Both the position numbers and the translations under genes were made by a program. A stretch of 36,013 nucleotides of DNA. Origin: a virus. This document shows, piece by piece, positions 1 to 36,013 of the stretch. Under the pieces are notes generated by a model. That model searched no databases. It was not told the DNA's origin and was given only the letters and a program-made list of their open reading frames with translations. The DNA lies in IMG/VR virus record IMGVR_UViG_3300040801_003188, positions 1-36,013 of that record. One strand, 5' to 3'. Position 1 is the first letter of the stretch, and every line of letters begins with the position of its first letter.

Positions 1-117
1 ATAGTCCCAGGCACAACAGACGCCCACAGCTTTTATTCACATTTCGCGTTCTCGCCGAACCGCACGGCAGCGAATCCAATCGGCCCGCCTCCGGGCTTTG
101 TAACGGGGTAAGAATAT
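1..117. repeat. Terminal direct repeat, copy 1 (identical to 35897-36013). Wrap-around overlap of a circular or terminally redundant genome.
   Basis: Read by eye: bases 1-117 (atagtcccaggcacaacag...gggtaagaatat) recur exactly at 35897-36013. The repeat lies inside coding sequence: the 3' end of the 33356..36007 gene plus the ATG of the next gene. Confidence 0.95.
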
Positions 118-1312
118 GGCTAGAACAGGAAGCGGGGTCTACTGTCGCGGCGGCGTAACCGGCGCGCATGTGCAGACTGGCATCGACATCGACGCACTAG
201 GCGGAACGCCTGATGTGTTGGTTGTCATGCTCGGCTATTACGACGACGCGTCAGATGGCAGCGAGATCACTGCCGTCGAGTACGGTGACGGAACCAACTG
301 GCAGACCCTAACCTTGATTGGCACGGGGCACGAGGGCGGATTCGGCACCGACCAGCAGGCGCGAGCCTACGCGGTCCTGAATCCTAACGTGAGCTATGAC
401 CGCATCCGCATCACGGCTTCCGAGGCGCTGACAGAGGGCGGAATTGTCGGATGGCACGCAGAGTCGAACGCGACCACGACCGGTATTCAGTCGCAGGCGG
501 CTTTCTCTGGCGGTCCTGGCGAGACATCGAGCGACACCTTTACCGGCGGAGCGACGGGAGACCGGATTGTCGCCCTGACCAATGGCGCCACCACCTGGGG
601 CGAGGGACTGGTAGAGCGGGCATCGTCAGCGGTTGCGTGTAATTCGTGGGGCGGTGGGTACCTCGCCGACAAGGCTTGGGAAGACGGCACCACGGCGGGC
701 GCTTGGTCGGCGCAGGGTGATTTCCTGCAAGTCTTGGCCGTGCATATTCCGGCCAGCGCTAGTGGTGTTGTGTTGCCATCATTTGATGGTCCAAATATAG
801 GCAACCAATCCGATGTAGAAAATCAGGCAATCGCCCCGTTGGACGTATCCGGTTTGTTTACCGCAGGAACCGGCACTAGCCCAACTTACAGTGCTTCCGG
901 ATTGCCTGTCGGGCTATCTATTGACCCGGCCACTGGTATTATATCAGGCACCCCAACAACAGTTGGTACAAATGCTAGTTGTCAGGTAACTTTGACTACA
1001 AGCGAAGGTTCTGCTAATTCAAATTTGTTTAGTTGGGAAATAACCACTGCCATAACTGTTCAAGTTTTAGATATAGGTGCTACAAAACCATCAGGATCGT
1101 TTTCTGTAACGGACGGATCGCAGGCTACCATAGGTAATCAGGTAGAGGTACCATTGTCTACTGATCAAGGTGACGCCATAACTTGGTATGGCCCCCCATA
1201 CGATGGCACCTTTGTTATTGATAATTCTACCGGGCAAAAAACTTTTCAAGCTCGTAGTCGTGAAGACTCTGGTAGCCCGTGGACTCCGTATGCTACGTTT
1301 ACCATAAATTAA
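116..1312 (+). CDS. Fibre/decoration-like protein with a putative Ig (He_PIG/cadherin-like) domain. The N-terminal half is GC-rich and the C-terminal half AT-rich.
   Basis: 398-aa ORF. ATG 116 lies 4 nt after the TAA of the upstream gene. SGLPVGLSIDPATGIISGTPTT is the classic 'putative Ig' signature. Composition switches at about nt 770. Confidence 0.7.
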   Translation: MARTGSGVYCRGGVTGAHVQTGIDIDALGGTPDVLVVMLGYYDDASDGSEITAVEYGDGTNWQTLTLIGTGHEGGFGTDQQARAYAVLNPNVSYDRIRITASEALTEGGIVGWHAESNATTTGIQSQAAFSGGPGETSSDTFTGGATGDRIVALTNGATTWGEGLVERASSAVACNSWGGGYLADKAWEDGTTAGAWSAQGDFLQVLAVHIPASASGVVLPSFDGPNIGNQSDVENQAIAPLDVSGLFTAGTGTSPTYSASGLPVGLSIDPATGIISGTPTTVGTNASCQVTLTTSEGSANSNLFSWEITTAITVQVLDIGATKPSGSFSVTDGSQATIGNQVEVPLSTDQGDAITWYGPPYDGTFVIDNSTGQKTFQARSREDSGSPWTPYATFTIN

Positions 1313-23517: not shown

Positions 23518-23838
23518 CTAATACTTAGATTTTCTGCGTCGGCCCGGCTCGTGAATCGTATTCAACAACTTTTTTGCCAACTCGACAGCACCATCGTGAG
23601 GATTGTGTAACACAGTTTCCCCAGTGTCTACATCATAGTGGAATTTCTCATCCGTCAGTGCCAGCTGTTCGCGTGTCGCACTTCGAGTCAGGATCGGGCT
23701 GCCGTTAATAAAAATTGTCACGGTTATCATGGTTTGGTGTCCTTTGTTTGGTCTGGTCTCCACGCCTCGTTCGAGGAGTTCATAATCGCAGTGCGTACAG
23801 AACACACTGTAGTCCCCGTGCTTTTCACAGTAGGCCAT
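23518..23838 (-). CDS. Hypothetical protein with an N-terminal Cys/His cluster
   Basis: ATG 23838 overlaps the upstream TGA (TGATG), with GGAGGG 6 nt upstream. The N-terminus is MAYCEKHGDYSVFCTHCDYE. Confidence 0.6.
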   Translation of the reverse strand: MAYCEKHGDYSVFCTHCDYELLERGVETRPNKGHQTMITVTIFINGSPILTRSATREQLALTDEKFHYDVDTGETVLHNPHDGAVELAKKLLNTIHEPGRRRKSKY

Positions 23839-24314
23839 CACCTACCCTCCGGTCGCTTCACCAACGTCTCCCGCCAGCGCTCGGGGTCATATTCGGGCAT
23901 ACCAGCGACCCCGCGCAGCGACATCGACGGCGTAGAGCCGCACCAAGACTTTTCCCCAGAACTGGGCTTTTCTGCATAGCCGTACCAGAGACGGGAGCGT
24001 GACGAGTACTGCGAAAAGCGGTCTCCGGCCACCCATTTAATATCAGGGTGGATGTGATCCCACGGAATCATGTCGGAGGTGATGTAAGGCTTAGGGATGA
24101 GGTCAAACTGACTATCCCTGTCCGGGTAAAACCACCCGTCGCGCGGCCATGTGTCCGCACACCACACTCGCAGACCTGGGGCGTAATAGGCAGCGAGAAT
24201 AGGGCGCTTGCCTGGAAGGTCATTAGCGTACAGCCGCACCTCCCAGCCGTTGCGCAGCGTGTGCTCTCGGGTGATGTCGATTTTGTCGGTCATTCTTTGT
24301 CTTTTCAGGGTCAT
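23838..24314 (-). CDS. Hypothetical Trp-rich protein
   Basis: 158-aa ORF, GC-rich, with GAGAGGAAAcgaacATG upstream. Confidence 0.6.
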   Translation of the reverse strand: MTLKRQRMTDKIDITREHTLRNGWEVRLYANDLPGKRPILAAYYAPGLRVWCADTWPRDGWFYPDRDSQFDLIPKPYITSDMIPWDHIHPDIKWVAGDRFSQYSSRSRLWYGYAEKPSSGEKSWCGSTPSMSLRGVAGMPEYDPERWRETLVKRPEGR

Positions 24315-24326
24315 GTTCGTTTCCTC

Positions 24327-24407
24327 TCAGTAAGGCGCGCTCGTGTCTGTGGTTGTGACCTGGATGGGGTCGATGTCGTCAGTCATAAAGCCTTTTTGCA
24401 TTTTCAT
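24327..24407 (-). CDS. Possible 26-codon micro-ORF (MKMQKGFMTDDIDPIQVTTTDTSAPY)
   Basis: Its ATG overlaps the TGA of the upstream gene (ATGA) and it fills an otherwise empty 89-nt gap. There is no other support. Confidence 0.2.
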   Translation of the reverse strand: MKMQKGFMTDDIDPIQVTTTDTSAPY

Positions 24408-24757
24408 TTAAGGCCATCCATTTTTAAGTACCAAGACCAGATGTGGTTTGCTAACAGTGTATTTACTGAGGTTGCCATCTCCTGCTCTCCCGAGGCGAAC
24501 CACCAAACGGTGAACACTGCTGCGGTAAGGTCAATCTTTCCCCCTTCTTGGTGAAGTGTTTTATGCGCCTCCCAACCTAGCCGTACCGCGCTCAAGTCGT
24601 ACTTCGACCAGTGTTTGTCTGGCATGCTCTCAACAAAAGCGCGGAACTCTGGGTCAGGCGTCCCCAGAAACTCACATCTAGCGAGGTACTCAGTATCATT
24701 CATGCCATCACCACTGCCAGCCGAGAGTAGCCCGTAAACAACGAGGCGAATATTCAC
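24404..24757 (-). CDS. Hypothetical protein (start uncertain)
   Basis: 117-aa ORF from GTG 24757. An alternative ATG sits at codon 19 (MNDTEYLARCEF). Confidence 0.5.
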   Translation of the reverse strand: MNIRLVVYGLLSAGSGDGMNDTEYLARCEFLGTPDPEFRAFVESMPDKHWSKYDLSAVRLGWEAHKTLHQEGGKIDLTAAVFTVWWFASGEQEMATSVNTLLANHIWSWYLKMDGLK

Positions 24758-24775
24758 GATATAGCCGCATCATGG

Positions 24776-24943
24776 CTAGTTCCTCTTCTCAGCTACGTTA
24801 GATGCCCCATAAACCCCTAGTGCGCCCAACATGGCGGTTACCCAACCTGTTCCGTCCAGGTGTTCAGTAAACAAGGCAACAGTTGCCAACCCTATGCTGA
24901 TGCACGTCAGCCAGAATTTTCGACTCATATATTTGGGATTCAT
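24776..24943 (-). CDS. Small two-transmembrane-segment protein (55 aa), absent from the ORF track. Holin-like by size and topology only.
   Basis: ATG 24943 lies after GAGGGTGcaaa. Translation: MNPKYMSRKFWLTCISIGLATVALFTEHLDGTGWVTAMLGALGVYGASNVAEKRN, with TAG at 24776-24778. Confidence 0.5.
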   Translation of the reverse strand: MNPKYMSRKFWLTCISIGLATVALFTEHLDGTGWVTAMLGALGVYGASNVAEKRN

Positions 24944-24964
24944 TTTGCACCCTCTATGTGAAAA

Positions 24965-25040
24965 TGGTGGGTCTGGCAGGACTCGAACCTGCAGTCTACC
25001 GATTATGAGTCAGCTGCTTTAACCTTTAAGCTACAGACCC
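24965..25040 (-). tRNA. tRNA with CAT anticodon (elongator Met or lysidine-dependent Ile2), with CCA encoded
   Basis: Folded by hand: acceptor GGGTCTG/CAGACCC; D arm GCTT-AAAGGTTA-AAGC; anticodon arm GCTGA-CTCATAA-TCGGT; variable loop AGACT; T arm GCAGG-TTCGAGT-CCTGC; then A-CCA. G1-C72 is paired, so it is not an initiator. Confidence 0.85.
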
Positions 25041-25054
25041 ACCGAGGTTAAAGG

Positions 25055-25396
25055 TTAAAACTGGAACCCTACCGTGGCACGAATCACTTCAGCGTCATGC
25101 GATCGGCCATAGGAAAATGACACTGTTGGGGCGTGGTCGCCGATACTACGGTGCGTCAGAGTTACGCCAGCCCCAGTCGGGCCATTGAGCACGCCTGCAC
25201 CGCCAAAGTCGATTCGGGTTCGGCCCGGGTCCGGCGTTACACTGGGCAGGGCCATTGCAGCAGCCAAATGGTCACTGGTTTCCTCCACCACAGTGATGTT
25301 GGTTTCCTCCACCACAGTGATCGGGGGGTCAATTTCCTTGCCTCCGGCAAAAACCGAGCAGGGCACCAATGCAGCAAACAAAACAAACTTTTTCAT
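25055..25396 (-). CDS. Secreted mini outer-membrane protein resembling a headless trimeric autotransporter (YadA-type anchor)
   Basis: The signal peptide is MKKFVLFAALVPCSVFA|GG, with AGGAGA RBS. ITVVEET[NS] is tandemly repeated. The C-terminal ~70 aa (LAAAMALPSVTPDPGRTRIDFGGAGVLNGPTGAGVTLTHRS...IRATVGFQF) resemble the YadA anchor consensus and end in an OMP-type terminal Phe. Confidence 0.5.
   Translation of the reverse strand: MKKFVLFAALVPCSVFAGGKEIDPPITVVEETNITVVEETSDHLAAAMALPSVTPDPGRTRIDFGGAGVLNGPTGAGVTLTHRSIGDHAPTVSFSYGRSHDAEVIRATVGFQF
25277..25324. repeat. 24-nt tandem duplication inside the mini-autotransporter gene
   Basis: ggtttcctccaccacagtgat occurs at 25277-25297 and 25301-25321. 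Confidence 0.9.
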
Positions 25397-25419
25397 TGCG
25401 TTTCTCCTGGTTGATTTAC

Positions 25420-25650
25420 CTACGTTACGGCTTCGAGCATTGATTTGAATCTCAGCCTGATGAATTCCGGTGCTTTAATTAACACGCGCACCGGCATTTT
25501 TTGGGCCCGTGCTGACCTCACCATTCTGGCGGCCTGATCAACAGACTCGGCCAGGGTACAATTGGTTGCACGGACGTCCCACGACTGGCCGACAGCACGG
25601 ACCACGAAATTGCTGTCGGCCAGTTCTACCCTAACTACGACCTTGTTCAC
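25420..25650 (-). CDS. Hypothetical protein
   Basis: 76 aa. The GTG start overlaps the upstream TGA (GTGA). Confidence 0.5.
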   Translation of the reverse strand: MNKVVVRVELADSNFVVRAVGQSWDVRATNCTLAESVDQAARMVRSARAQKMPVRVLIKAPEFIRLRFKSMLEAVT

Positions 25651-26168
25651 TCCACGTCACCCCTCTGCTTGACCATGGCCCGCATCGCGGCCTTGACGTT
25701 ATCCAGGGTGATATCCCTACGTTTGATTGCCGCACGCAGCCTGTTGCCGCTGTTCATCCGGATCTGGCCGGGGTTCAGGGATTCGTATTTGGCCATCAGC
25801 CAGCCGGGTTCATCCCCGTCCACAGACAGGGCGATTTCCGCAGCCAAACAAACGTCGTTAGGTGACAAAGGACGCAGAACCTCGGCCAATTCGTCTCCCG
25901 TGTTTTGGGTCTTTTTGCCAGAGTAGGAGACGTCCTCGTGGTACCCAGCGCGGTATTTGGCCAGGATTTGGCTCATTTTCCTGCCGTCAGCTGGCGCGTG
26001 ATCCAGCTGGGATTCCCTGGCCTTGATTACTGTGCCGTCTGGGCAGGTGATTTCGTACCACCCTTTCTGGTAACCCGTGACAGTGCCTTCGTAGGTTCCG
26101 GATTTGGTGGTAGCACGAACCTGAGCGCCGTGGTCGAAAGCAGGCGCGTTGTCTGTTTTGCTGGTCAT
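25647..26168 (-). CDS. LNPGQxRM-motif protein with an N-terminal SH3/KOW-like segment (paralogue of 21603..22037)
   Basis: 173 aa. ATG follows AGGAGACAGACCA. It shares a ~75-aa region with 21603..22037 (SG.KT.N.GD..A.VL...Y..LNPGQ.RM..GNR.RA). Confidence 0.6.
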   Translation of the reverse strand: MTSKTDNAPAFDHGAQVRATTKSGTYEGTVTGYQKGWYEITCPDGTVIKARESQLDHAPADGRKMSQILAKYRAGYHEDVSYSGKKTQNTGDELAEVLRPLSPNDVCLAAEIALSVDGDEPGWLMAKYESLNPGQIRMNSGNRLRAAIKRRDITLDNVKAAMRAMVKQRGDVE

Positions 26169-26257
26169 TGGTCTGTCTCCTAGTCGTTGTCTAAAGGTCT
26201 ATTCTAACACAGCTAGTTGCTCGCTGCAAGCCCTGTTTGTTAACCCGTGGGGTCCCC

Positions 26258-26403
26258 GGCTCGGGGCTCCAGGCTCCGGGCTCCAGGGGGGCTCCGGGTC
26301 GCTCGTCCGGACCACCCCTGGACCCTACCTACCCACCCAACCCCTACCTCTCCCCGCGAACTAGAGAGAGAGTTGGAGCCTGGAGCCCGGGAGCCCCGAG
26401 GGG
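26258..26403. repeat. Inverted arrays of the GGCTCCR heptamer flanking a 34-nt G-free tract (G-quadruplex motif on the - strand)
   Basis: GGCTC[CG]R occurs x4-5 at 26258-26296. The complement GGAGCC occurs x3 at 26375-26395. The tract 26322-26355 (accctacctacccacccaacccctacctctcccc) contains no G. Confidence 0.8.
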
Positions 26404-26411
26404 TTTCTTGG

Positions 26412-26600
26412 TTACCGCTTGACGCCCCAGGTCGAAGCGCCCAGCACCCAGACCTCCTCGCCGTCGTCGAACTCCACAATTGGGCACTGACTGCCGAGTT
26501 CCTCGACGTACTCGGCCAGCCGTTCGGCGACTTGGTCGCCAGTCACGGAACTCGGGTGCTCGACCTCGAACTCTAAAACCACTTTGGTAACTCTGTTCAC
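26412..26600 (-). CDS. First early gene: small, strongly acidic protein
   Basis: 62 aa with about 13 D/E versus 5 K/R. The GTG start follows AGACAGGAGACAGCAGAC and lies about 50 nt downstream of the leftward promoter. Confidence 0.6.
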   Translation of the reverse strand: MNRVTKVVLEFEVEHPSSVTGDQVAERLAEYVEELGSQCPIVEFDDGEEVWVLGASTWGVKR

Positions 26601-26655
26601 GTCTGCTGTCTCCTGTCTGGTTTCGGGGTCAGGCGTTCGCCGACCCTACCCCGTA

Positions 26656-26684
26656 ATTGTACCACACAACACCTGGCTGTACAA
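26656..26684 (-). promoter_or_regulatory. Leftward early sigma70-like promoter: TTGTAC-17 nt-TACAAT with TGTGG extended -10
   Basis: The - strand reads TTGTACagccaggtgttgtgtggTACAAT. Confidence 0.6.
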
Positions 26685-26740
26685 CTACCGTTCGTCGGGT
26701 TGTCGGGTTGTCCTTGTGCGCCACGCCCGCCGAACCGCGT

Positions 26741-26758
26741 CCACGCCCCGGGGCGTGG
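26741..26758. promoter_or_regulatory. Palindrome family copy 4
   Basis: ccacgccccggggcgtgg, an 18-nt perfect palindrome. A half-site-like ccacgccc also occurs at 26721-26728. Confidence 0.6.
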
Positions 26759-26922
26759 GAAGCCGAACCAGGAGCCCAGCTGGGGGCTGGGGTTTGCTGT
26801 TCGCGGTTCGCGTACGGAGGGAAGGGGGCTGGCCCCCCCAACCGGGGCCCCCGGACCCCGGACCCCTGGTTTTTCTTCCCAAAATAACGGTCCGAGATTT
26901 TTAATATATTGCATAGTCTTCT

Positions 26923-26944
26923 TCCCACGCTCCGGAGCGTGGGA
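26923..26944. promoter_or_regulatory. Palindrome family copy 5, abutting the -35 of the rightward promoter
   Basis: tcccacgctccggagcgtggga, a 22-nt perfect palindrome. Both central changes (C>T and G>A) are compensatory relative to copies 1, 2 and 4. Confidence 0.65.
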
Positions 26945-27692: not shown

Positions 27693-28025
27693 ATGATTGC
27701 AGAAGAAAAAGAAGCGAGCGCGATTGAGCGGCACGCACAAACTGCGGTGGGTCTGCTCGTTGCCGCCATCGTCGTCTATGTTGGGTGGCAGGCGCAAGGA
27801 CAGGTGGCGCGGCTTGATGAGCGTGTTCTAGCGATGCAGAAAGAGATGGCAATGCTCAGAGATGAGCTCACCGCGAAGATGAGCGACCGTTACTACGGCA
27901 GCGACGCGCGGCGTGACTTTGAGTTGCGCGACAAGCGCCTTGACTCGCTTGACAAGCGCCTTTCTGCCGTCGAGGAAAGGCTTTGGCGGCGGCCTGATCT
28001 GTACCGTCCAGGAGCCGTCAAGTAA
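27693..28025 (+). CDS. Membrane-anchored coiled-coil protein, Rz/i-spanin-like. A GC-rich gene between terS and terL.
   Basis: 110 aa with one TM segment (TAVGLLVAAIVVYVGW) followed by charged helical sequence. Its position mirrors T7 gene 18.5 between genes 18 and 19. It is visibly more GC-rich than both neighbours. Confidence 0.4.
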   Translation: MIAEEKEASAIERHAQTAVGLLVAAIVVYVGWQAQGQVARLDERVLAMQKEMAMLRDELTAKMSDRYYGSDARRDFELRDKRLDSLDKRLSAVEERLWRRPDLYRPGAVK

Positions 28026-33271: not shown

Positions 33272-33302
33272 CATCGCGGCCCTCCTCCACGGGGCGACCC
33301 TT

Positions 33303-33330
33303 CCCCCGGCCAAAAGGCCGGGGGTCTTTT
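33303..33330 (+). terminator. Rho-independent terminator after the capsid gene
   Basis: CCCCCGGCC-aaaa-GGCCGGGGG followed by TCTTTT. Confidence 0.85.
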
Positions 33331-33355
33331 GGGGCAAAACAAGAGGCGGTATAGC

Positions 33356-36007
33356 GTGCCATCACGTAATGACATAAAATTTACCGCATTGCGGGACCAG
33401 GGGTTTGTTGGGTCTTTAGCGGATATGTTGTTAAGTTGGTATCAGTTATATGGCGCCACTTCAAATAGTCTAAAAGACGCAGAATATGAATTTCTTTTGT
33501 CCCAAGGGTCTAGCCCAAGTTGTTTGCGGGACATGTGGGACCAATTTTATATTAGTCGCGGATATACCGGCAGTGTATCCGACATGGATTCTCAGTTCTG
33601 GTCAGATGGTGGTACTTTAAGTGAAATTCAATGGAATACTGTACCGGACATATTGTTCATAGAAACTATTCCGAATACGTATGATGTTAGACAACACCTA
33701 GGAGGCAGTGAACGGAATACGGCCACAATAACCAGGGGACTAGGTGCTCTCCCATCCGGGGTAACATTTAGTAATGGCGTGTACACTTACGACGGGATAG
33801 GAGCTGCTGGTAATCTTATTGGGGATCAGTTAACCGCCAATAGCACTACCCAAACAGAAGTTTCTGCTACATTTGACTTGACAGTGCACGCGTATACACC
33901 CCTTAGTTGGGGCGCAGTGCCGAATGCCGAATTTATTTATGGGATACCTAGTACCATTGATGTTCGCAGTTATTTGCTTGGCACAAACTCACTTGGGGCT
34001 ACTATAAACTTCAACCAGCCGTTGCCTGCCGGGGTTACATTTGATGGTTCTACATTGGCTTATGACGGGGTGGGGGTTGTTGGGGTATCTAATAGTTATG
34101 TAGCGTCTGCAAATGATGGCATAAGTAATGATAGTTCTAATTTGTTTGCTATAGCCATTGCCCCAGACATATCGCTCGCATCTCAATCGTTTACCATATC
34201 TGATAACGGGTCTGGGCAACTGGATAGCCGCGATCCGATTGTTATAGACGTGTCGCTTGCATCTCAGTCGTTTACCGTGTCCGATAACGGGTCTGGGCAA
34301 TTGGATAGCCGCAATCCGTTGGCGGAGCACCCGATGCTGCCGTGGGTCGCGGACTTCTCGACCGGCGACTTCAGCCAGTTCAATTACGACGCCTTTGGGT
34401 CTGGTTTCACCATCGAGTCAGACGGCACGCAGTACCCGGGGCTCACAAACTACGCGCGTACAGCGCTGCCCGGTACTGATGGCTACGAGTACCACATCAT
34501 CGGCCCGCCCACGAACGCTGGGCCGCTGGTTACGGAGTGGTGGTTCGAGGTCGCGATTAGCTACGGCGATTTCGCGGGCGATTGGCCCGTCAACCACAAA
34601 TGCGTGCTGTTCAACTTGACCGATGGCGTCGGAACTAACCGTCGCTATCAGGTCATGCTGTATGCCGCAGATCAGACGTGGACCGGCATCGCCGCAGGTG
34701 AGTACGCCTTCGAACTGATCGAGTGGAGTCCGGCGGGCGCATTCGTGCGTTCCGCGCTTCTGCTTCCGAATCTCGGGCAGCGAGCGCCAATCAATCGCGG
34801 GCAGTGGGACGTGATTCGCGGACGCATCCGGCTCAACACGACTTGGGATGGCACCCTGGCCCTGGGCTCCGGGCCGGGCAACGGCATCATGCAGTGCTGG
34901 CACAATGGCACGCAGGTAATGGACTTCTCGGACGTGTGCTACGTCCGCGACGAGTACCAATGTGGTTTAGGTCGCACCATCATGACAGAGGACGAGGGGA
35001 TAAGCTGGCCAGCCGGTACGCCGACGACAAAGGACTTCGGATTCTTGGAGGTTGCTGAGAACAGCGCGGACCTAACGGCGATGCCGAGCGGGCCAGTGTC
35101 GCGTACTTTCACGCCAACACTGCCGCTAGCTTCTATTGACCTTGCCACCGATGGTCAAGTCTACGAGCTGGATTTGAGTGCGGGCGACTATGAGCCGCGT
35201 GTAACACCTGGAAATGGCGGCGCGCTCACTTACGGTCCAGCAATCGGCTGGAACAATGAGCCGGGGGTCCGGATCGATCCGCCTACCGTTGTGATGCCGA
35301 GTGGGAATGCTGAGTATTGCTGTTTGCTGAGCAATGCGTTGGGCGGGCTTCGTGCCGGGATCACTCGGTTCAACATGCGCTTTATGGTCTATTTCGCGTC
35401 GAATTATGGACAGGCCACGCGAGGTTTCGACACTAAGTTTGTTGGGCCTGCACCGACCTCTGCGCGATGGCTCTCCAACATACAAGCTGCTGGTAACACG
35501 CCCGCCAACATGGCGGCAGTGGCGGTAGCAATCGGCACATTCAAGAATTATTGGACCGAGCCAGATTACACCAGCGAAAATGACGAGTGGTCATGGAATG
35601 CGGAGCCTGGATTGGCGGCACTGTTTGTTGGACCAAGTCCAGATCATACCGGCTCGGCAACGAGCGGCACGCCTGTTATCGGAAATGAGTGGGTTTGCCT
35701 CGAATATCACTACGACTACGCGGGCGGGCCTGCCGGGCATGGCGAGCATCGCCTGCATGTCTGGACCGCTGACGGGGTGTTGTCGGGGCAGATCATGCGG
35801 TGCGACGGTACTATTGAAGGTGGGGCCCTTTGGAGTGGCCCCGGGGAGTGGGGCGGTTTCGAGGCAACTGGGGTGGGCGGTTTCTGGAACGGGGCTATAG
35901 TCCCAGGCACAACAGACGCCCACAGCTTTTATTCACATTTCGCGTTCTCGCCGAACCGCACGGCAGCGAATCCAATCGGCCCGCCTCCGGGCTTTGTAAC
36001 GGGGTAA
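33356..36007 (+). CDS. Large fibre/decoration protein. It has GYTGS..DM repeats, two Ig-like repeats and a 27-aa tandem linker. The C-terminal region is GC-rich, with two ConA-like/polysaccharide-lyase-like segments.
   Basis: The likely start is GTG 33356, 9 nt after AGAGG. The track start at 33329 (TTG) lies in the terminator U-tract. A repeated ~95-aa unit is present (VPD/VPN...YDVR/IDVR...LP[SA]GVTF...YDG[IV]G). The C-terminal segments each end in a jelly-roll-like G.M.CWHNGTQVMDF or HRLHVWTADGVLSG motif. Confidence 0.65.
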   Translation: MPSRNDIKFTALRDQGFVGSLADMLLSWYQLYGATSNSLKDAEYEFLLSQGSSPSCLRDMWDQFYISRGYTGSVSDMDSQFWSDGGTLSEIQWNTVPDILFIETIPNTYDVRQHLGGSERNTATITRGLGALPSGVTFSNGVYTYDGIGAAGNLIGDQLTANSTTQTEVSATFDLTVHAYTPLSWGAVPNAEFIYGIPSTIDVRSYLLGTNSLGATINFNQPLPAGVTFDGSTLAYDGVGVVGVSNSYVASANDGISNDSSNLFAIAIAPDISLASQSFTISDNGSGQLDSRDPIVIDVSLASQSFTVSDNGSGQLDSRNPLAEHPMLPWVADFSTGDFSQFNYDAFGSGFTIESDGTQYPGLTNYARTALPGTDGYEYHIIGPPTNAGPLVTEWWFEVAISYGDFAGDWPVNHKCVLFNLTDGVGTNRRYQVMLYAADQTWTGIAAGEYAFELIEWSPAGAFVRSALLLPNLGQRAPINRGQWDVIRGRIRLNTTWDGTLALGSGPGNGIMQCWHNGTQVMDFSDVCYVRDEYQCGLGRTIMTEDEGISWPAGTPTTKDFGFLEVAENSADLTAMPSGPVSRTFTPTLPLASIDLATDGQVYELDLSAGDYEPRVTPGNGGALTYGPAIGWNNEPGVRIDPPTVVMPSGNAEYCCLLSNALGGLRAGITRFNMRFMVYFASNYGQATRGFDTKFVGPAPTSARWLSNIQAAGNTPANMAAVAVAIGTFKNYWTEPDYTSENDEWSWNAEPGLAALFVGPSPDHTGSATSGTPVIGNEWVCLEYHYDYAGGPAGHGEHRLHVWTADGVLSGQIMRCDGTIEGGALWSGPGEWGGFEATGVGGFWNGAIVPGTTDAHSFYSHFAFSPNRTAANPIGPPPGFVTG
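34166..34320 (+). repeat. 81-nt (27-aa) tandem duplication at the AT-rich/GC-rich junction of the fibre/decoration gene
   Basis: Units start at 34166 and 34247. They encode DISLASQSFTISDNGSGQLDSRDPIVI and DVSLASQSFTVSDNGSGQLDSRNPLAE. Confidence 0.9.
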
Positions 36008-36013
36008 GAATAT
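35897..36013. repeat. Terminal direct repeat, copy 2 (identical to 1-117)
   Basis: Exact 117-nt match to the window start. Confidence 0.95.

Follow-up and report, generated by a model that had tools for sequence, protein, structure and literature searches.

The stretch of viral DNA analysed here, positions 1 to 36,013 of the IMG/VR virus record IMGVR_UViG_3300040801_003188 (36,013 nt; hereafter the window), encodes two consecutive genes, designated A and B, that share a GC-rich centre of foreign composition. This centre is one contiguous segment of ~2.4 kb comprising the last ~580 codons of gene A, an 8-nt spacer and the first ~214 codons of gene B, and both of its joints are in frame. We regard it as probable (about 0.72) that a receptor-binding cassette was exchanged at conserved boundary motifs within a two-gene fibre-like module. 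An initial, sequence-only reading had proposed that a distal domain was acquired from elsewhere and grafted onto a resident N-terminal scaffold in gene A; this interpretation is partly supported, in that its core idea holds while part of the extent and of the context was missed.

The composition of gene A shifts abruptly and mainly at synonymous sites. GC content in 200-nt windows was 0.43-0.47 up to position 34299 and 0.54-0.66 from 34300 to the end, and GC content at third codon positions (GC3), in windows of 50 codons, was 0.32-0.48 ahead of a tandem repeat of 2 x 81 nt and 0.72-0.84 just past it, with the step from 0.39 to about 0.78 located at nt ~34,247-34,330. The best division of the gene into two segments fell after nt ~34264, inside the second repeat copy (GC3 0.39 vs 0.68; log-likelihood ratio (LLR) 36.1). 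None of 2000 permutations reached this value, the permutation maximum being 9.7, and for 14 other long genes the LLR was at most 6.9; only A and B showed such change-points. The abrupt in-frame switch described in the sequence-only reading, and the 27-aa tandem repeat placed at it, are thus borne out.

Codon usage separates the two kinds of sequence clearly. The GC-rich parts of genes A and B correlated with each other (r = 0.74) but only at r = 0.15-0.23 with the core genes, whereas the low-GC parts of both genes correlated with the core at r = 0.80-0.86, so that the GC-rich part is foreign and the N-terminal part of gene A resident in codon usage, as had been suspected. AGA and AGG accounted for 221 of the 455 arginine codons of the core genes and for 1 of 30 within the block. 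When the amino acids of the block were recoded with core codon usage, a GC content of 0.51-0.53 was expected as compared to the 0.60-0.63 observed. Amino acid composition as sole cause, which the first reading had named as a competing explanation, was therefore rejected, since it accounts for under half of the GC shift.

Residue numbers of gene A refer below to the complete open reading frame (ORF), open at 33329-36007 (892 codons from a TTG), and not to the 883-aa gene model. This TTG sits within the T-run of a strong terminator-like hairpin, GTG 33356 is preceded at a distance of 9 nt by AAGAGG, and the N-terminal module is matched by homologues from around ORF residue 11 onwards; on these grounds the 883-aa model with a frame open throughout, as drawn at the outset, was accepted. 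The Joint Genome Institute (JGI) call for gene A is 696 aa long (P0196) and omits the N-terminal module and the first immunoglobulin-like (Ig-like) domain, both of which have clear homologues.

The full extent of the block became apparent at the ends of the window. Positions 1-117 and 35897-36013 are exactly identical, indicating a closed or terminally redundant genome with a unique length of 35,896 nt. The cut lies inside the coding end of gene A, which suggests that the 117-nt duplication is an assembly overlap rather than a genuine non-coding terminal repeat. In the closed genome the stop codon of gene A (36005-36007) stands 8 nt before ATG 116 of gene B, and GC3 of gene B is 0.71 up to codon ~214 (nt ~757) and 0.32 thereafter (LLR 31.2; 0 of 2000 permutations). 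The GC-rich block accordingly crosses the stop codon into gene B and ends in frame at nt ~757. The acquired unit is indeed foreign, as first proposed, but it is a cassette spanning two genes and not a distal domain of one; the earlier estimate fell short because the circular genome is cut at the window end.

Both junctions lie on a single JGI contig (36,013 nt), and its closure point falls inside the GC-rich block. An artefactual break, produced by misjoining GC-rich sequence of another organism to a phage contig, is nevertheless very improbable. It would require two misjoins, each of them in frame, correctly oriented and only a few codons away from homology boundaries that were defined independently, and a misjoin through a shared motif would yield one hybrid copy, not two copies in tandem. 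The repeat copies share no more than 18 exact bases and no k-mer of 21 or longer at either junction recurs elsewhere in the genome. In addition, the two GC-rich contig ends share an exact overlap of 117 nt and, once joined, encode a coherent gene end, the spacer and a gene start in one codon usage.

The left junction coincides with the repeat. Tandem Repeats Finder reported it at 34165-34318 (period 81, 1.9 copies, 87% matches, no indels), and a separate repeat search found 73-nt copies spaced by 81 nt with 88% identity. Over their first 24 residues the two copies are identical at 21, with a DNA divergence of ~12%, or 20% across all 81 nt. Among the 16 differences between them, 11 go from AT to GC in the second copy and 3 from GC to AT, a bias that fits one motif copy from each parent. 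In all six relatives that contain it the motif is single-copy and terminates an Ig-like domain, whereas it is doubled only in the window. It is followed by another Ig-like domain in P0051, P0052 and P0058 and by unrelated sequence in P0050 and P0089, while P0055 ends soon after it.

The repeat could also have arisen by slippage in place, either standing at the break by coincidence or serving as a flexible stalk under length selection. The copies are nearer to each other (21/24 residues, 88% DNA) than to the motif of any relative, and the GC3 contrast between them is not significant by itself (Fisher p = 0.17). However, the change-point falls inside copy 2, the differences are directional, and the motif is otherwise single-copy. 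Moreover, a divergence of ~12% (20% over 81 nt) would imply long residence, which is hard to reconcile with an adjoining block that still has GC3 of ~0.8 in a genome of ~0.4. We consider a slippage origin rather unlikely. The proposal that the duplicated linker is a recombination scar or hot spot gains from the conservation of the motif at module boundaries and from the directional differences, but not from the GC3 contrast between the copies taken alone.

Homology boundaries fall at the composition boundaries. A word-indexed search of 5.8 billion proteins returned a single relative of gene A, P0001 (from a 4,458-nt contig), which begins at ORF residue 336, 2 residues beyond repeat copy 2, and is ~93% identical over residues 336-595 (domain C1) and ~35% identical over 596-892 (domain C2). 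For gene B the only non-trivial relative, P0003, matches residues 219-398, i.e. the low-GC part, and the GC-rich N-terminal part had no relatives in the word-indexed search. An exhaustive HMMER search resolved four independent modules in gene A, namely the N-terminal module, the Ig-like region with the linker, C1 and C2. Searched separately, the two halves of gene A had entirely different relatives rather than the same closest ones: P0001 and P0047 match the block only, and P0050-type proteins, like P0003 for gene B, match the flanks only.

The GC-rich block is itself a mosaic according to these comparisons. P0047, encoded on a 1,045-nt contig, is 95% identical to the window in C2 only; the similarity begins exactly at the C1/C2 boundary and is preceded by unrelated sequence. 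As P0001 is close in C1 only and P0047 in C2 only, C1 and C2 have moved independently in recent time. Other relatives are far more distant, with 28-40% identity for C1 and 27-42% for C2, and many of the latter are stand-alone proteins of ~310-330 aa ending in IGPPPGF. We asked whether C1 and C2 are duplicates of one domain, but this was rejected (hhalign probability 0.2%).

The flanking modules have relatives of their own. Over 100 relatives of the N-terminal module were found, at 40-55% identity; almost all of these proteins, 83-950 aa long, carry it at their own N-terminus. The Ig-like region with the linker (ORF residues 100-310) is related to P0050, P0051, P0052, P0055, P0058 and P0089, and no Pfam model was reached by the Ig-like repeats of gene A. 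In gene B, residues 227-310 form a He_PIG domain (PF05345; 47.5 bits, cut-off 24). The N-terminal module belongs to no Pfam family, and its sole PHROG match, to phrog_8869 of unknown function, is weak (E = 1.6e-4); no curated tail-fibre family in Pfam or PHROGs matched gene A, and neither gene gave a tblastn match in 50,697 phage records. The GC-rich part of gene B was suspected by eye to resemble the C-terminal half of P0115, the ORF beside P0059 and the slot ORF of L016, and local alignment did not support this. Residues 341-592 of P0115, a C2-like protein, and the ORF just upstream of the stand-alone C1-like gene P0059 (L030 2-541) do have a domain in common (34% identity, E = 4e-10), which may be another cassette partner domain.

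A donor other than a phage was also considered, i.e. capture of the block from the bacterial host as a gene for a secreted glycan-active protein. Distant C1/C2 relatives (P0049, P0053, P0056, P0057) have signal-peptide or lipoprotein N-termini, P0056 lies on a bacterial-looking contig near LamG/Big_7 and GDSL-lipase genes and a transposase, and the GC-rich early genes of the phage share the codon usage of the block (r = 0.70), as if both came from one GC-rich background. On the other hand, these bacterial-type relatives are only ~30% identical, many phage proteins have the same fold according to the fold search, and a gene end, short spacer and gene start fit a phage module exactly, so that a phage donor is the simpler assumption and host capture appears improbable. 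The near-identical P0001 and P0047, both from short metagenomic contigs, favour neither origin.

Domain C1 was modelled from an 11-sequence family alignment as a beta-jelly roll of the ConA-like superfamily (predicted local distance difference test (pLDDT) 74.9, predicted template modelling score (pTM) 0.81). The top Foldseek matches of the model were 6kzk, 2zzj and 3gne, of polysaccharide lyase (PL) families PL36, PL20 and PL14 (E 2e-8 to 3e-6, TM-score 0.5-0.64), among them the alginate lyase Aly36B, a glucuronan lyase and the Chlorella-virus lyase vAL-1, followed by glucanases of glycoside hydrolase family 16 (GH16) and lectin-like domains of clostridial toxins. The same fold occurs in many uncharacterised phage proteins. 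The window's own C1 sequence did not match the polysaccharide-lyase profiles PF21294 and PF14099; its relatives P0106 and P0195 scored 38.2 and 32.5 bits on PF21294 (PL14; cut-off 27), covering only profile positions ~138-194 of 215, and remained below the cut-off of PF14099. A Lys, a Gln and a Trp are invariant in the C1 family and an Arg is nearly so. Based on the model, C1 is a ConA-like jelly roll nearest in fold to polysaccharide lyases, and a putative depolymerase.

For C2, no known family, no relative among solved structures and no similarity to C1 was detected. An AlphaFold2 model of C1 and C2 together, built from a 2-sequence alignment, had a pLDDT of 31 and was discarded, and in sequence searches of solved structures neither gene A nor the C1 and C2 profiles retrieved a meaningful match. 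Of the two jelly-roll/ConA-like segments proposed in the sequence-only reading, the predicted fold and its lyase matches thus speak for the first, while the second could be assigned to neither a fold nor a family.

The place of the two genes in the genome was compared with related phages. In the closest core relatives the capsid gene is followed by a small ORF and the adaptor-position gene, with a gap of 230-380 nt. This empty slot, with one small ORF, occurs in L006 (61% capsid identity), L013, L002, L005 and the isolate Alteromonas phage ZP6 (L023), and other relatives (L004, L009, L016) hold unrelated cargo of 0.9-3.3 kb. Since ZP6 and the closest relatives lack genes A and B between the capsid and adaptor genes, the pair is accessory in the lineage of the window; the N-terminal scaffold, though of the genome's own codon usage, is resident in this restricted sense only. 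Slot ORFs of L009 (90 aa; E = 4e-5) and, more weakly, L004 (477 aa; E = 0.1) showed a faint likeness to the N-terminal module in a search of a tiny database.

An A-type gene followed by a B-type gene was found upstream of the adaptor gene in five lineages, the window, L001, L025, L035 and L036. The adaptor gene is directly downstream of the pair in four of them, a small ORF intervening in the window. The capsid gene was seen directly upstream of the pair in the window, L025 and L035; in L036 and L001 the available stretch begins inside or just before the A-type gene, so that the capsid gene is outside the view. In L025-L027 the order is SU10_MCP, a small ORF, P0050 (772 aa), a 589-aa gene and SU10_adaptor, and L035 is arranged likewise. 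B-type proteins are alike only from He_PIG to the C-terminus, where identity to the window is 37-59% and L035 matches L036 at 85%; the ~160-300 residues ahead of this part are unrelated across lineages, even in the L035/L036 pair. A-type proteins, in turn, are alike only in the N-terminal, Ig and linker parts. As judged from these alignments, the variable unit in all five lineages seen is the end of A together with the start of B. A search with the conserved end of gene B for further A-B loci gave only re-samplings of L001 and L025.

Some features of the individual loci were also recorded. In L025 (8001-12088), from an SU10-type phage rich in GC, the centre of the pair is shifted towards AT, with GC3 of 0.42-0.70 as compared to 0.78-0.90 in the flanks and ~0.82 in the genome. 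This mirror image of the window suggests that the centre was imported there too. The SU10-type portal of L035 (1824-3713) is spread over three short ORFs, through frameshifts or poor assembly, and in L036 (3332-5596) the SU10_adaptor match lies within a 754-aa protein, suggesting fusion of the adaptor to a downstream tail protein.

Taken together, genes A and B would constitute a fibre-like surface module of two genes that a podovirus of the ZP6/HTVC010P type carries as an insertion between its capsid gene and its adaptor gene. Its resident outer parts would be the N-terminal module, the two Ig-like domains and the linker motif of A and the He_PIG domain and C-terminal end of B, and the imported centre would consist of the two C-terminal beta-sandwich domains of A, the 8-nt spacer and the first ~214 codons of B. 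From the position and composition of the joints we infer the mechanism and the direction of transfer: the most likely source of the centre is recombination with a phage of higher GC content bearing the same kind of module, with a left crossover at the 27-aa linker motif, where both parental copies would have been kept as the 2 x 81-nt repeat, and a right crossover at the start of the He_PIG domain. Such an exchange would swap the outward-facing, glycan-binding or glycan-cleaving fibre tip together with the adjoining domain of its partner, and thereby change what the virion recognises.

The fibre role and the receptor-binding function we infer from the company that the N-terminal module keeps and by analogy with phage SU10. 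Its other carriers end in BNR/sialidase-like, FG-GAP, beta-helix, GDSL plus Laminin_G_3 or polysaccharide-deacetylase domains, the repertoire of fibres and tailspikes, which argues for a fibre-like role of gene A, and the module itself is presumably the part that docks to the virion. On this analogy, gene A may be a fibre protein whose tip binds or cleaves glycans, and gene B its partner. Gene order agrees with a tail role, as the pair separates the capsid gene from the adaptor gene in the window, L025 and L035 and precedes the adaptor in all five lineages.

A different role for the same exchange would follow if A and B were capsid decorations of the Hoc type, in which case the swap would alter adherence to surfaces or mucus-like polymers and not receptor choice. 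Both genes immediately follow the major capsid gene, Ig-like domains occur in both (He_PIG in B, two repeats in A), and the pair is dispensable in the closest relatives. Gene B is conserved C-terminally and variable N-terminally, the same orientation as in T4 Hoc, which binds the capsid through its C-terminal part. However, the N-terminal module of A is common to proteins with beta-helix, sialidase-like BNR, SGNH esterase and deacetylase ends, as in tailspikes and fibres. The pair stands upstream of the adaptor, which is the fibre dock in phage SU10, in 5/5 lineages (directly in 4), and an 883-aa protein with an enzyme-like tip would be unusual for a decoration protein. A-B and Hoc are alike in the Ig-like domains, the dispensability beside the capsid gene and the C-terminal conserved end of B, but share no sequence similarity. 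We consider the decoration role unlikely.

Several points weigh against cassette exchange in a fibre module. The junctions are present in one assembly only, and the donor genome was not recovered: scans of viral contigs with either half of gene A and of metagenome contigs with the C1 and C2 alignment found no donor DNA. The N-terminal part of B has no relatives, and its transfer together with C1 and C2 is argued from contiguity and codon usage alone. Likewise, the closeness of the repeat copies to each other also fits duplication in place, to which the weak GC3 contrast between them adds. The conserved-flank pattern is drawn from five lineages only. The fibre role is assigned by analogy, with SU10 fibre genes coming after the adaptor gene and not before it, and the Ig-like domains and the adjacency to the capsid gene are also compatible with head decoration.

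The closest precedent is the long-tail-fibre locus of T-even phages (Tetart et al. 1996/1998 as cited in Trojet et al. 2011, PMC3157838), where g37 was replaced in its C-terminal part together with the neighbouring g38 and conserved motifs mediate the shuffling. As proposed for the window, the exchanged unit is the distal end of a fibre gene plus the adjacent gene, short motifs mark its boundaries and host recognition is changed. The two systems differ in that T-even phages are myoviruses and the window derives from a marine-type podovirus, without sequence similarity between the loci, and in that the boundary motif is a 27-aa element in the window as compared to His boxes and glycine-rich motifs. 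Furthermore, replacement of the downstream gene is limited to its first part in the window and its conserved part is C-terminal, whereas gp38 is attached by its N-terminus.

In Escherichia phage SU10 the long fibre consists of the consecutively encoded gp12 (proximal) and gp13 (distal), the first of which docks on the adaptor by its N-terminal ~90 residues (PMC9509320). The A-B pair resembles this arrangement in having two consecutive genes and a potential ~90-residue N-terminal dock on the first protein. An SU10-type adaptor gene follows the pair directly in 4/5 lineages, and an SU10-type capsid was found in the two of these four with a readable capsid gene. Unlike in SU10, where the order is gp11 (adaptor), gp12, gp13, the pair precedes the adaptor; genes A and B are also without sequence match to any phage isolate searched, and the core of the window is of the ZP6/HTVC010P type and not of the SU10 type.

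Receptor-binding proteins of podoviruses commonly combine a conserved N-terminal anchor with interchangeable C-terminal depolymerase or lectin domains. Gene A is similar to such tailspikes in that a conserved N-terminal module is joined to many alternative glycan-active C-termini and a lyase-like tip is predicted; it differs in that the tip would be a ConA-like jelly roll instead of the usual right-handed beta-helix and the N-terminal module has no Pfam family. In the invertible G segment of Mu and C segment of P1, a constant N-terminal fibre part is followed by a variable C-terminal part and a downstream gene that move as one DNA unit, and a variable fibre end and downstream gene are exchanged as one unit in the window as well. 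An invertible segment was rejected, as there are no inverted repeats within 33300-36013, no second, oppositely oriented cassette and no recombinase nearby; the exchange would be evolutionary and not programmed.

Swapping of host-recognition modules is already known in phages and no new mechanism is seen here, whereas the domain families involved are largely uncatalogued. The window nevertheless offers an unusually legible case of the rebuilding of a host-recognition protein, in which the codon usage of the donor is retained, domain boundaries coincide with both in-frame joints, one of which would hold both parental copies of the boundary motif, and near-identical imported domains occur separately in other metagenomes. 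It defines several uncatalogued blocks, namely the ~90-aa N-terminal anchor, the linker motif, the lyase-like jelly roll C1, C2 with its IGPPPGF ending and the conserved end of gene B, which could aid the annotation of metagenomic podoviruses and engineered fibre swaps. More tentatively, A and B might be an undescribed mobile two-gene receptor-binding module, with the linker motif and the start of He_PIG acting as dedicated in-frame recombination 'splice sites', although we hold this to be doubtful. If so, the module would pass among podoviruses of unrelated lineages, those of the SU10 type and those of the ZP6/HTVC010P type, by entering the slot between capsid and adaptor. The end of A and the start of B would then make up a co-adapted joint or tip, and for this reason the centre would be swapped whole, gene boundary included.

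Table 1. Coordinates of the features of genes A and B and their surroundings in the window.
Feature	Position	Strand	Remarks
Intrinsic-terminator-like hairpin	33303..33324	+	9 G-C pairs then TCTTTT; after major capsid gene, before gene A
Gene A, fibre-like modular protein, 883 aa	33356..36007	+	GTG start; ORF open from TTG 33329
N-terminal module, ORF aa ~11-100	33359..33628	+	low GC; >100 relatives (HMMER)
Two tandem Ig-like domains, ORF aa ~101-279	33629..34165	+	low GC; homologous to repeated domains of P0050/P0051/P0052/P0055/P0058/P0089
Linker motif copy 1, 27 aa, DISLASQSFTISDNGSGQLDSRDPIVI	34166..34246	+	GC3 0.44, resident-genome-like
Linker motif copy 2, 27 aa, DVSLASQSFTVSDNGSGQLDSRNPLAE	34247..34327	+	GC3 0.67, foreign-block-like; left junction of cassette
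Domain C1, ORF aa 336-595	34334..35113	+	GC3 ~0.72-0.84; 93% identity to P0001; predicted ConA-like, polysaccharide-lyase-like jelly roll
Domain C2, ORF aa 596-892	35114..36004	+	GC3 ~0.54-0.74; beta-rich; 95% identity to P0047
Terminal overlap	35897..36013		identical to 1-117; cut lies within GC-rich block
Gene B, 398 aa	116..1312	+	begins 8 nt past gene A stop; P0002 is the same protein
Gene B GC-rich N-terminal part, aa 1-~214	116..757	+	GC3 0.71; continuation of cassette
Gene B low-GC C-terminal part	758..1312	+	He_PIG Ig domain (aa 227-310) and conserved ~90-aa end
Adaptor-position gene, 194 aa	1558..2142	+	closes capsid-to-adaptor slot

The structural arm ahead of gene A reads, on the + strand, small terminase, large terminase, T7-type portal (PF12236), scaffold and major capsid protein (PF19821). 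Among isolates the capsid protein is nearest to that of Alteromonas phage ZP6 (50%), Vibrio phiVC8/VP2-like phages and Pelagibacter podophages. Rfam and tRNA scans detected no RNA element in the region of genes A and B; a single tRNA-Met (CAT) at 24965-25040 on the - strand, amid the early genes, was the sole RNA gene detected.

A second, patchy GC-rich zone extends over 23800-26900 (GC 0.53-0.69) and covers small minus-strand early genes. GC3 of the early genes at 23838-24314 and 25647-26168 is ~0.69, and their codon usage correlates at r = 0.70 with the fibre cassette as compared to 0.42 with the core. GC-rich DNA may therefore have been taken up more than once, or from one GC-rich background. 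The stretch 26200-26900, apparently non-coding and situated between the divergent early and structural arms, has a GC content of 0.65-0.69 and had no Rfam match. Several inverted repeats lie in this stretch, one of them with 22-nt arms (26741-26762 and 26921-26942) that are each near-palindromic. Finally, a small GC-rich patch lies where the structural arm begins: the first ~35 codons of the large terminase gene (27913-28020) have a GC3 of 0.74 as compared to 0.42 in the remainder (LLR 6.9; 18 of 2000 permutations).

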